Virus record (IMG/VR): IMGVR_UViG_3300025131_009739 | Location: 101,873-165,872 of that record | DNA: 64,000 nucleotides | Strand: one strand, 5' to 3' | Source of the DNA: a virus | In this document: piece after piece, positions 36,202-57,140 of the stretch | Layout of the letters: each line of letters starts with the position of its first letter | How positions within the stretch are numbered: position 1 is the first letter of the stretch | Program-made: the position numbers and the translations under genes | Notes under the pieces: model-generated | Database searches by the model: none | The model's input: only the letters and a program-made list of their open reading frames with translations | What the model was told of the DNA's origin: nothing

Positions 36202-36519
36202 TGGTGGAGGCGGTGGGAATCGAACCCACGTCCAAAAATCATCAAATATACTGTCATTCACAAGATTATCTGGTTTTTGAACCAGCAAACTGCTCAGTAG
36301 CTCAATTAAACGTGCGCACCACTTATTTTTATAAAGAAATAAGAAACTTTTTGCTAGTTTTGGAGAATAAGGCCACTAGCAGCCTCAGATTACGCAGCTA
36401 AGGCGTAATCAACTTCAACATTATCGTTGGCAGTTAAAAAGTTGAATGTTTATGCTGTGACACTCACACAGTCTTGCCAGAAATACTATCATAATCTCTG
36501 TCGAAACCATGACACCCCC
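36202..36519 (-). ncRNA. ssrA: tmRNA; tag peptide ANDNVEVDYALAA
   Basis: 5' GGGGGUGUCAUGGUUUCGAC and 3' GGACGUGGGUUCGAUUCCCACCGCCUCCACCA; G3-U alanyl determinant; tag frame at 36431-36390 ending YALAA-stop. Confidence 0.95.
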
Positions 36520-53727: not shown

Positions 53728-54375
53728 GTTTTTTTTCTCTCTCTTGAAGGGTATAGACTGATTATAGCAAAGTTGGGGGTAGTTGTCAAGGTTTATTTTC
53801 CAGCGACTCGGTGTTCGCCCGGCTTCCTGTGCGTATCCGGTGGGCGAGGTCCGGTTCTGAGGCTTGCCCGTTCTTTACTTGCTATGCCTGCTCGATGGCT
53901 CGGCGTGTTATGGGGGCGCAAGTATTGAAGCGGGCTAGCACGCCCTGAAGTCAATCTGTCATTGTGTTTTTTCCTGTTGGGGTTCTGAAGGGGGAAATGT
54001 GGACCGGCAAAGCCGCGTAGGGTTGGCGGGCGTTTTGCCCTTTTTCGATTGTTATATATATATTATAGCACAGGGAAAGCGAGTTGTCAAGAACTTTTTT
54101 CATCAATGATCTCGAGCAGTTATCTGCTGCCGCGTTGTAAGTGTTGGGAATCATTGGGAAATAAAAATGATCTTTTTTTGCACTTTTTTTAGTGGGCGCG
54201 TTGGCACGGATCGTGCTATATTGCAGGAAGTGTGCCATATTGGGGGGTTGTACTAGATCCAAACCACTATGAACCACTTCTTTGATTTTCCTAAATAAAA
54301 ACAACAAGTTAGCCAACATCATATAAACCATCTACTTACACCCTATCCTTTCCCTAATGATTACCAATAGTTAGC

Positions 54376-54811: not shown

Positions 54812-55666
54812 TTATTTTTCTTGTTCTCGGGGATATCGCAACCATTCCTTATGAACGCTGACCAGACCATAACCAGGCAGGGCGATTTGATAACAGGACT
54901 TCGCCCGGTTCCCCAGGTACTCGCCAGCATCGGAGAAGTCGGTTTTGCGGGATTTCCTAATGATTACGCCTACTTGCCCGTGTCCCTTGAGAACGTCATG
55001 ACGATCTTTGCCTGCTAACACGTAGTCCCAGAGTTGGATGGTATCGCCTTTCTTGAATGATTTCATTTACTTACGACCTTCCAGCTTGAGGAATAATACG
55101 TATAAGGAGCACCGACACCTGCGGCGACAATCAATACTTCATCCCCCCTGCGGAATCGATCACCGAGCAGCCTTGTGATTACCCCGAGCGTTCCACGGGG
55201 GACAAGATGATCACCGCACCCTGATCCGTTGGGGTGCGTTACCTGAACCAAATCACCGACTTTCATGCTATCACCTCAAAATGTCCCTGAGTGTAGTTAC
55301 CACACCAAACTTTTTCACCCTCGCAGGAGAGCATAACGTCAACGTAGTTACTCAGAGGGGGGTTGTTCATTGTATCGGGGCGCACATCAACGACGATACC
55401 CACACAACCGGCTGGAAATGGCCCGCCTGGTACATGGGGATTATCCCAGACTGCGCGGGTGTTTGTTACTAAGTCACCGACTCTCATGATATCACCTTGA
55501 TTATTTGAGATTGGAAAATCATAATGGGCTTACCTGTCTCTACACGATGAACCCACCACATGCCGCCCTCTACTTCACTTGTGAAGGCTGGACCCAAGAC
55601 AAGAGCAACATTCTCTTTCCTGCTGCCTATCTGTATCATATCGCCTGTTTTGAATCGCTTGTTCAT
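54812..55666 (-). CDS. Four coupled 'xGDLV' SH3/KOW-like mini-genes (54812-55066, 55063-55266, 55263-55487, 55484-55666)
   Basis: Starts KKGDTI, MKVGDLV, MRVGDLV and FKTGDMI; ATGA overlaps. Confidence 0.75.
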
Positions 55667-55844
55667 TTTTTTCTTCATCTCGATTATTATGTACCCATTA
55701 TAACACGGTGTTAGTGCTTTGTCAAGCATTTTCTTTTTGAATGATCTCGGGAAGTTAGCGGGTTTGGGGTTGTAAGTTGTTGTTATTGTTGGGTTATTTA
55801 TTTTGAACTTTTTTTCTTCAATGATCTCGGGCATTTACCCTAGT

Positions 55845-56402
55845 AATATGGTCGCGGAAGGGCGGCATAACACCCACTCATCAGTCAAAGCTCTCGCTCG
55901 TGATCCTGCATGACTACCGATATTTGGCACGACCATACCCTTGGGGTATTTGGGAAGGGGGAAGGGTGCGCCTGGCTTTGTTGCCTAGGCCCGGTGATAA
56001 GATGCCTCCTATCGGTGGACTAGCGCACCCTTCGCCCCGTAGAGAGAAGGCGGGTTCGATCACATGGTTTCGGGTGGCAGCAACCACCTTCTTTACCCAG
56101 GGAAAGAGGACCGCAACTGTGCTTTTTCACCTTCTCTCTCTGCCAGAGGGAGCTAAGATTAGGGGGTCAATCCCAACCTTGCCTTATTCCCCCGCGTTGA
56201 CTAAACGCGAGCAACCATTATCAGGCGTCTCCGCGACTACCCCTTCAGGCAGGAGGGATTCAAACCCCCCTCCTAATAATGCCTCTGGCTTTCGTAGCGT
56301 GCTACAGACTCACTTTGTTGTAGTCTGACTAACAGCGTGCTCGACCTTTGAGGTGGTCAGGTTCTCACCTGGCTACTGTCAGGGCTCCACCCACACGCTA
56401 CT
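55845..56402 (-). ncRNA. Candidate large structured non-coding RNA (~560 nt), family unassigned
   Basis: Promoter at 56431-56459; no minus-strand ORF of 60 aa or more; several long perfect helices; GNRA-capped hairpins in the minus sense. Confidence 0.7.
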
Positions 56403-56464
56403 TTTTTCTATATTTTCAAAGAACAATCCCATTATACCACAATGGGGAGTGGTTGTCAAGTTTT

Positions 56465-56653
56465 TTATTCCCCTGACAGGAACATATTCAGCGCCTCGAC
56501 GCCCAGGGAGTAACAGACAGAACCATCGCTCAAGTCCACGACATTACTGACTTTTTCGCCGTCTTGGATTGAATCAAGTTCTTCCTCTGTAACACGGACA
56601 ATGGTTGCCTCTGTATCCCAGGTTTCGCCATCTGGCATTACTACAATAAACAT
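56465..56653 (-). CDS. Small acidic protein
   Basis: 62 aa ORF behind the promoter at 56686-56714. Confidence 0.6.
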   Translation of the reverse strand: MFIVVMPDGETWDTEATIVRVTEEELDSIQDGEKVSNVVDLSDGSVCYSLGVEALNMFLSGE

Positions 56654-56823: not shown

Positions 56824-57003
56824 TTACTGCCTGACGTACTGTAGTATTTGTTTCCATACCTGTTGTTCCTTTCCTTCTTTGAACCAATAAACACTAACTA
56901 TGTCGCCATAGCCTTTTTTTGGGTTTATGTCTATTATTATTCCTATTCCTTTGTCTCTTCTCGTTCCGTACCTTCTGTGACACACTAAGTCACCGAGTTT
57001 CAT
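56824..57003 (-). CDS. 'MKLGDLV' SH3/KOW-like mini-gene
   Basis: MKLGDLVCH...GIIID...VYW. Confidence 0.7.
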   Translation of the reverse strand: MKLGDLVCHRRYGTRRDKGIGIIIDINPKKGYGDIVSVYWFKEGKEQQVWKQILQYVRQ

Positions 57004-57140
57004 CATCCTTTCCACTTGAAGTCGCGACAGGCTTTCTTAGCCTTTTGTTTTCGCTTATCCCCGTGGTTGCCTGAACCAGTCCTAAAGTGGGCGTGAATCG
57101 CCAGCCAGTTCCGCAGCTTTGGTTTCTTCTTCCTTCTCAT
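57003..57140 (-). CDS. 45 aa basic peptide
   Basis: MRRKKKPKLRNWLAIHAHFRTGSGNHGDKRKQKAKKACRDFKWKG; stop overlaps the next ATG; not in the ORF track. Confidence 0.6.
   Translation of the reverse strand: MRRKKKPKLRNWLAIHAHFRTGSGNHGDKRKQKAKKACRDFKWKG

Follow-up and report, generated by a model that had tools for sequence, protein, structure and literature searches.

Does a stretch of roughly 560 nt that carries no sizeable gene, in the genome of an uncultured phage, encode a large structured RNA, and of which kind? To our knowledge, few bacterial or phage RNAs above ~500 nt have elaborate conserved folds, namely rRNA, RNase P, introns, OLE, ROOL and GOLLD. The locus lies in a 64-kb window (the whole stretch of DNA analysed here), which is the terminal part of a 165.9-kb IMG/VR virus record. 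Because this record is estimated to be ~48% complete, its source is a large uncultured phage, of marine origin. The original prediction described the locus as a ~560-nt structured minus-strand non-coding RNA (ncRNA) of no known family, possibly a new class, and this description is supported by Rfam, coding, covariation and folding checks.

A consensus promoter ahead of a gene-free stretch

The perfect sigma-70 promoter proposed for this locus is present: read on the minus strand from 56459 to 56431, TTGACA-17-TATAAT matches the consensus at 12/12 positions and carries an extended -10 (TG). From this position, transcription would start near 56427-56424. The minus-strand ORFs of the RNA stretch, followed up to the next promoter module, are at most 57 aa long, in agreement with the predicted lack of a sizeable one. 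The elements flanking the RNA are the following:

56465-56653, minus strand: 62-aa gene (MFIVVMPDGETWDTEA...), the usual upstream neighbour of the RNA in homologue group A
56431-56470, minus strand: promoter, from its A-tract onward, with a 12/12 sigma-70 match
56459-56454, minus strand: -35 element TTGACA, followed by the 17-nt spacer with TG
56436-56431, minus strand: -10 element TATAAT, by sequence match
56402-56422, minus strand: A/U-rich single-stranded leader UCUUUGAAAAUAUAGAAAAAA, kept in both homologue groups
55826-55840, minus strand: conserved box GGGUAAAUGCCCGAG, present in every group A homologue that reaches it

The RNA is single-copy in the 165.9-kb record, and its surroundings form an array of promoter-driven mini-genes. 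For the 62-aa gene, Pfam and PHROGs give no family, and its product is a possible partner of the RNA. Four neighbouring mini-proteins compared with Pfam and PHROGs gave nothing significant. The MKxGDLV mini-protein at 56824-57015 (minus strand) has a faint match (E = 0.09) to a CarD/TRCF RNA-polymerase-interacting (Tudor-like) domain, which hints that the array may encode small beta-barrel proteins. The listed 116-aa ORF at 55484-55834 (minus strand) is an over-extension that crosses a second 12/12 promoter at 55725-55697; the true downstream mini-gene begins behind that promoter, near 55687 (MKKKMNKRFKTGD...). A DUF2201 protein encoded in the neighbourhood shares ~26% identity with its nearest cultured relatives. 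Reverse transcriptase, Ro60/TROVE and SmpB, sought as partners of the RNA in the 165.9-kb record (~48% complete), were not found.

Three further RNA-related features of the window were recorded. A tRNA-Arg gene lies 5.6 kb from the RNA locus. The phage has a tmRNA at 36202-36519 (minus strand; Rfam, 118 bits; tag ANDNVEVDYALAA), though no SmpB gene was found within the 165.9-kb record. A second promoter-driven, ORF-free stretch of ~250 nt, at 53795-54055 (minus strand), precedes the next promoter; its own promoter is a consensus one (TTGACA at 54090-54085, -10 TATAAT at 54067-54062), and it is C/A-rich, weakly structured (z = -1.4) and without kinship to the main RNA.

Homologues and coding potential

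Homologues were sought by two routes. Since gene callers call spurious ORFs across RNA genes, a protein collection was searched with the plus-strand 142-aa frame (55900-56328), which yielded four protein clusters whose contigs carry the RNA at 85-89% identity. By the second route, an 18-mer from an invariant block led to 25 metagenome contigs, of which nhmmer confirmed 21 as true homologues. These 21 homologous loci hold ~21 distinct sequences, mostly 85-90% identical; one is on a Tara Oceans scaffold and most others are JGI records. They fall into two groups. In group A, which comprises the window and 16 distinct sequences, the layout is that of the window and the promoter stands at equal distance, despite differing spacer sequence. 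Group B (5 distinct sequences) has in common with the window only the leader, the closing helix P1 and a core of ~100 nt, which sit in a longer ORF-free stretch of ~770 nt. Downstream of this ~770-nt RNA, a tRNA-Leu(UAA) gene is found in two group B loci (L065:2836-2923 and L067:1786-1873).

The RNA family is rare and narrow. Blastn against 50,697 phage records gave no match, and nhmmer and blastn gave none in 38 related viral contigs sharing the DUF2201 gene; in these contigs the RNA is absent within 10 kb of the marker gene, and the covariance model of the core detected no copy. A core 20-mer had no other copy in IMG/VR (0 hits), and the 30 matches of the 18-mer among 185,579 species genomes were all chance, none passing nhmmer. 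A second spurious-ORF protein search, with the group B frame, returned nothing. We found no published description of this RNA. The ~10,000 viral structured-RNA candidates of PMC10690425 average 67 nt and require at least three viral matches, so that the RNA seems unlikely to be among them.

The original prediction had set the 142-aa frame, if conserved, against the RNA. That the stretch encodes a protein, through this frame or a small minus-strand ORF, is a reading to which we give next to no probability. The frame is open in the window, and gene callers have called overlapping ORFs in four metagenome clusters. Against this, the frame has no Pfam match, its variable columns are spread 67/66/66 over codon positions 1/2/3, and every homologue carries 5-12 indels whose lengths are not divisible by three and which break it. 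The longest open frames vary in length and frame among homologues, and the four 'homologous proteins' span just 27-69% of the 142-aa frame. The frame is not conserved and not coding, and the protein reading is refuted. Conservation of the RNA equals or exceeds that of the neighbouring upstream 62-aa gene, as in L066 (87.5% against 75.7% nucleotide identity).

Fold and covariation of the RNA

Folded in the minus sense, the stretch reaches a minimum free energy of -246 kcal/mol, against -202.7 +/- 7.0 for 100 dinucleotide shuffles (z = -6.18; 0/100 shuffles as good), so that it folds better than shuffled controls, as was expected of it; the plus-sense fold has z = -4.05. Many conserved G-U pairs would become A-C mismatches on the opposite strand. 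These pairs, together with the promoter and the z-scores, assign the RNA to the minus strand. All five predicted domain-closing helices are read directly from the sequence:

56294-56301 / 56394-56401, minus strand: helix P1, GUAGCGUG / CACGCUAC
56142-56149 / 56282-56289, minus strand: helix P5, GCCAGAGG / CCUCUGGC
56041-56050 / 56130-56139, minus strand: outer helix of the core, AGAGAGAAGG / CCUUCUCUCU
55961-55971 / 56023-56033, minus strand: domain 4 helix, GAAGGGUGCGC / GCGCACCCUUC
55847-55854 / 55930-55937, minus strand: 3' domain helix, UAUGGUCG / CGACCAUA

The domains around the core are organized as follows:

56294-56401, minus strand: domain 1, closed by P1 (56401-56393 / 56302-56294)
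56392-56387 / 56356-56351, minus strand: P2, in domain 1
56382-56376 / 56335-56329, minus strand: crossing helix, in domain 1
56371-56358, minus strand: P3, a GAGA/GAAA hairpin in domain 1, covarying
56327-56322 / 56310-56305, minus strand: P4, in domain 1, covarying
56142-56289, minus strand: domain 2, closed by the invariant P5 (56289-56282 / 56149-56142)
56281-56272 / 56225-56216, minus strand: P6, in domain 2, covarying
56270-56253, minus strand: P7, a T-loop-like hairpin in domain 2
56211-56191, minus strand: P9, in domain 2, covarying
56180-56155, minus strand: P10, in domain 2, with one-sided variation through G-U
55957-56038, minus strand: domain 4, closing helix 56038-56023 / 55971-55957
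55938-55956, minus strand: pyrimidine-rich tail UUCCCAAAUACCCCAAGGG, invariant in all group A sequences that reach it
55847-55937, minus strand: 3' domain of type i, closed by 55937-55930 / 55854-55847

Domain 2 also holds a variable hairpin region, and the interior of domain 4 consists of a 4-bp helix, the hairpin at 56013-55996 and a small hairpin. The GAGA-loop hairpin at 56358-56371 is present as claimed. Its proposed companion at 55996-56013 exists as a hairpin; the GNRA label given to it does not hold, because the third base of the GGCA loop is C. The T-loop-like hairpin was found at 56253-56270 (GGGGG-UUUGAAU-CCCUC). Among homologues its loop reads UUUGAAU, UUCGAUU or UUGCAAGCA; all variants fit the T-loop pattern U-U-N-N-A, and each is self-complementary (UUGCAA; UUUGAA with a G-U wobble; UCGA). 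The loop is compatible with a tertiary T-loop contact or a kissing dimer. The long-range 8-bp match between 55851-55858 and 56230-56237 is a perfect complement here but is not conserved. Each arm falls within a segment for which the homologues have other sequence, even the two with the same 3' domain, and the pseudoknot or switch built on this match is not supported.

Compensatory base changes support the fold. In an alignment of domains 1-2 (14 sequences, 73 pairs), 97.1% of cells hold standard pairs, a share that falls to 38-48% once the partners are shifted by 1-3 columns. Double changes affect 17 pairs, against 7.0 +/- 1.6 in shuffles (0/500 reach 17), a control that overstates significance because the sequences are related; the slid-partner control and the domain swaps described below are unaffected by this. 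The double-changed pairs include some in P1 (one), P3 (three), P4 (four of six), P6 (three) and P9 (three). The GAGA hairpin P3 becomes CAGGC-GAAA-GCCUG in homologues, and in P1 a C-G pair becomes U-A in four sequences, with U-G intermediates. Across groups A and B, the core alignment has 20 double-changed cells, against 7.7 +/- 1.9 in shuffles (0/500): the outer helix of the core shows A-U to G-C, and a hairpin inside it, Pc, shows G-C to U-A or A-U. Domains 3-4 are nearly invariant in group A, with 4 covarying pairs against 0.6. Domain 4 varies by one G-C to A-U change and by hairpin replacement.

Domain exchange around a near-invariant core

Comparison of the homologues revealed that whole domains are exchanged and that the closing helices are kept in every such swap. 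The type i 3' domain (55937-55847) occurs only in the window, L056 and L050. In the other homologues this position is taken by an unrelated three-way-junction domain (type ii), which is also found in a group B locus, L058. P1 encloses 73 to 170 nt and three different inserts, and is kept in group B and in L045, which has a different insert inside it. The middle of domain 1 is missing from L055. Hairpins of domain 4 are replaced in L060, L056 and L050; in the last two, the small hairpin is swapped for a longer one. In L057, the 5' domains are missing and the leader UCUUUGAAAAUAUAGAAAAAA, retained even there, is joined directly to the core. Compared by nhmmer with related viral loci, the swapped modules gave no match. 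Within the genome of the present phage, the window's 3' domain matched itself, the group B 5' part weakly matched this locus, and one further weak match (E = 9e-4) is probably chance.

The segment that replaces the interior of domain 1 in L045 (1069-1365, minus strand) has a terminator-like hairpin with a U-run, followed by a TTGAC-like site. The segment may represent a different module, or else an insertion by which the RNA is split.

The part around which these exchanges take place is the core:

56041-56139, minus strand: hyper-conserved core of ~100 nt, the sole part common to all variants of groups A and B
56088-56073, minus strand: Pc, the variable hairpin of the core, covarying
56113-56109 / 56061-56057, minus strand: candidate helix CGGUC/GAUCG

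Its long strands, UGAAAAAGCACAGUUGCGGUCCUCUUUC and most of GAAACCAUGUGAUCGAACCCGCC, are identical in all ~21 sequences, the outer helix and the embedded hairpin vary freely, and the covariance model of the core scores 118 bits at the window locus. One mismatch and one-sided changes, from G-C to G-U, are seen in the candidate helix CGGUC/GAUCG. With so little variation in the core, covariation cannot define its inner fold. In a pseudoknot search of its variable loop (CCCUGGGU or CAAUGCGCU) against the other variable sites, no consistent partner was found. Invariant unpaired strands beside drifting helices have the look of binding sites or active centres.

Transcript ends and alternatives acting in cis

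No terminator was found 3' of the RNA and before the next gene; the 3' end must therefore arise by processing or by read-through, which may extend into the next gene. The box GGGUAAAUGCCCGAG closes the RNA unit, ahead of the next promoter module. A box of the form (GGGTAAAT)GCCCGAGATCATTGA followed by an A-tract stands ahead of many early promoters, as at 55826-55840 and 54110-54125; it might serve regulation or processing, or act as a joint for cassette recombination.

The missing terminator, and a conserved box that ends the unit just ahead of the next promoter, would also suit control of the downstream mini-gene in cis, by a long leader, 5' UTR or processing cassette. We regard this as unlikely. 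Three unrelated kinds of gene lie downstream of the RNA among the homologues, group B RNAs precede yet other genes, and in the window the downstream gene has its own 12/12 promoter (55725-55697). A downstream gene that varies and is separately promoted argues against a dedicated cis-regulatory leader.

A role at the level of DNA, or as a replication pre-primer, was weighed as well. ColE1 RNA II is a structured transcript of ~550 nt that forms a persistent hybrid at its origin. The size, promoter and structured nature of the present RNA are similar; in addition, GC skew switches sign within the locus, whose surroundings are dense in promoters and close to a composition switch. Free domain swapping, and a relative without the whole 5' half, are more in keeping with a modular RNA that acts in trans than with an origin at a set position, and related phages are without the RNA, so that we consider an origin function very improbable.

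A stand-alone RNA probably acting in trans

With the gene and its strand, fold, conservation, modularity and non-coding nature shown, the best explanation of the whole is a stand-alone gene for a new family of large (~570 nt) ncRNA that would be produced early and would work in trans by way of its core, to which we assign a probability of roughly 80%. Early expression is suggested by the promoter type and the neighbourhood, and both action in trans and a binding or scaffold mechanism are our inference. In the mechanism we propose, the host sigma-70 RNA polymerase would read the minus strand from the consensus early-type promoter, and, this promoter lying inside the mini-gene array, the RNA should appear early in infection. 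The transcript would consist of an A-rich leader, four helix-closed domains and an exchangeable 3' domain, and would act in trans through its folded shape. The ~100-nt core would be the functional centre, since its unpaired strands are invariant while helices drift and peripheral domains are swapped, and would bind a conserved partner, which may be a macromolecule of host or phage or further copies of the same RNA. As in ROOL, GOLLD and OLE, the peripheral domains, with the T-loop-type hairpin among them, may act as a scaffold and make contacts, whether tertiary or between molecules. The RNA may serve either partner binding, in which a conserved factor of host or phage would meet a decoy or scaffold, or self-assembly.

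More tentatively, and with a probability that we hold to be low, the RNA could be the founding member of a new ornate class whose core is catalytic or ligand-binding, or forms an RNA-multimer interface, and which captures or encapsulates a conserved host component early in infection. If so, the target might be, for example, a tRNA-handling or translation factor, and the RNA would be an RNA-based device for host takeover or anti-defence.

We know of no large phage RNA with a known function at the early stage of infection. The consensus promoter and the position in the apparent host-takeover region of a large marine phage point to a role at this stage. The exchange of domains like cassettes around a near-invariant core of 100 nt is an unusual property that offers a small, testable functional centre, and the modest length of the RNA makes it amenable to in vitro transcription, chemical probing and cryo-EM.

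Comparison with known RNA families

To place the RNA among known families, the whole window was scanned with cmscan and all 4227 Rfam 15 models. The RNA locus has no match at the gathering score, nothing relevant over the locus at E <= 10, and none in seven homologous loci at E <= 1; no Rfam family accounts for it, as had been anticipated. The same scans recover the window's tmRNA and tRNA-Arg, and the tRNA-Leu in a homologue locus. It is thus highly doubtful that the RNA is a divergent member of a catalogued family (ROOL, GOLLD, OLE, RNase P, an intron, a second tmRNA, 6S or Y RNA), because neither the locus nor its seven homologues match Rfam 15 while the tmRNA and tRNAs are found. In its favour, the RNA is similar to ROOL and GOLLD in size, in its ornate multi-domain fold and T-loop hairpin, and in coming from a phage, and some short strings resemble conserved regions of RNase P, a likeness that served as a lead only.

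The original prediction had not recognised hallmarks of RNase P or of group I/II introns, and the absence of Rfam matches agrees with this. For RNase P RNA (RF00010, RF00011, RF00373) there was nothing at E <= 10, and the string GGAAAGUCC is absent; the resemblance of short strings to RNase P or 16S rRNA was rejected, no model matching. Group I and group II introns have no Rfam match, and on either side the locus has separate promoter-driven mini-genes where an intron would have exon halves. ARAGORN and Rfam found nothing tmRNA- or tRNA-like at the locus or in the RNA of the homologues. A hammerhead suggested by CUGAUGAG in the 3' domain was dismissed: it lacks GAAA and stem III, and there is no Rfam match. 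ROOL (RF03087) has no match in the window, whether at the gathering score or at E <= 10, and the seven homologue loci gave none at E <= 1. The model of the conserved 3' half of GOLLD (RF01998) has none in the window or the seven homologue loci. OLE (RF01071) has no model match, and the neighbours are unannotated mini-genes, with no oapA/B/C-type partner.

GOLLD is large, ornate, borne by phages and prophages and often near tRNA genes. It combines a part that all members conserve with a part that varies (bioRxiv 10.1101/2024.12.08.627333). Here, the variable region of some homologues contains a T-arm-like element, the tRNA-Arg lies 5.6 kb off and the tRNA-Leu is close in L065 and L067. GOLLD exceeds 800 nt, whereas this RNA has ~570 nt, and its conserved part is the 3' half, in contrast to the central core of ~100 nt found here. 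ROOL, at ~580 nt, is likewise multi-domain and phage-encoded, with pseudoknot candidates and no known protein partner (PMC5737381). Its domain layout is unlike that of the present RNA, which so far is known solely from 21 metagenome loci (one from Tara Oceans) and the virus record. The tRNA vicinity of both ROOL and GOLLD is echoed by the tRNA-Leu(UAA) beside group B RNAs. OLE is a structured RNA of ~600 nt with long invariant unpaired stretches, which in OLE are binding sites; unlike the present RNA, it is chromosomal, in anaerobic Firmicutes, with dedicated partner proteins encoded adjacent to it.

As every Rfam membership test failed, the closeness to GOLLD, ROOL and OLE is one of kind, not of homology. 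Each of the three proved to form an unexpected homo-oligomeric, RNA-only assembly, of which the self-complementary P7 loop is the sole possible hint here. At >400 nt, with covarying helix-closed domains, non-coding and phage-borne, the RNA has the features that describe a large ornate phage ncRNA. The locus adds to these systems an unrelated, new family, whose large modular phage ncRNA is of the ROOL and GOLLD kind and a member of neither.
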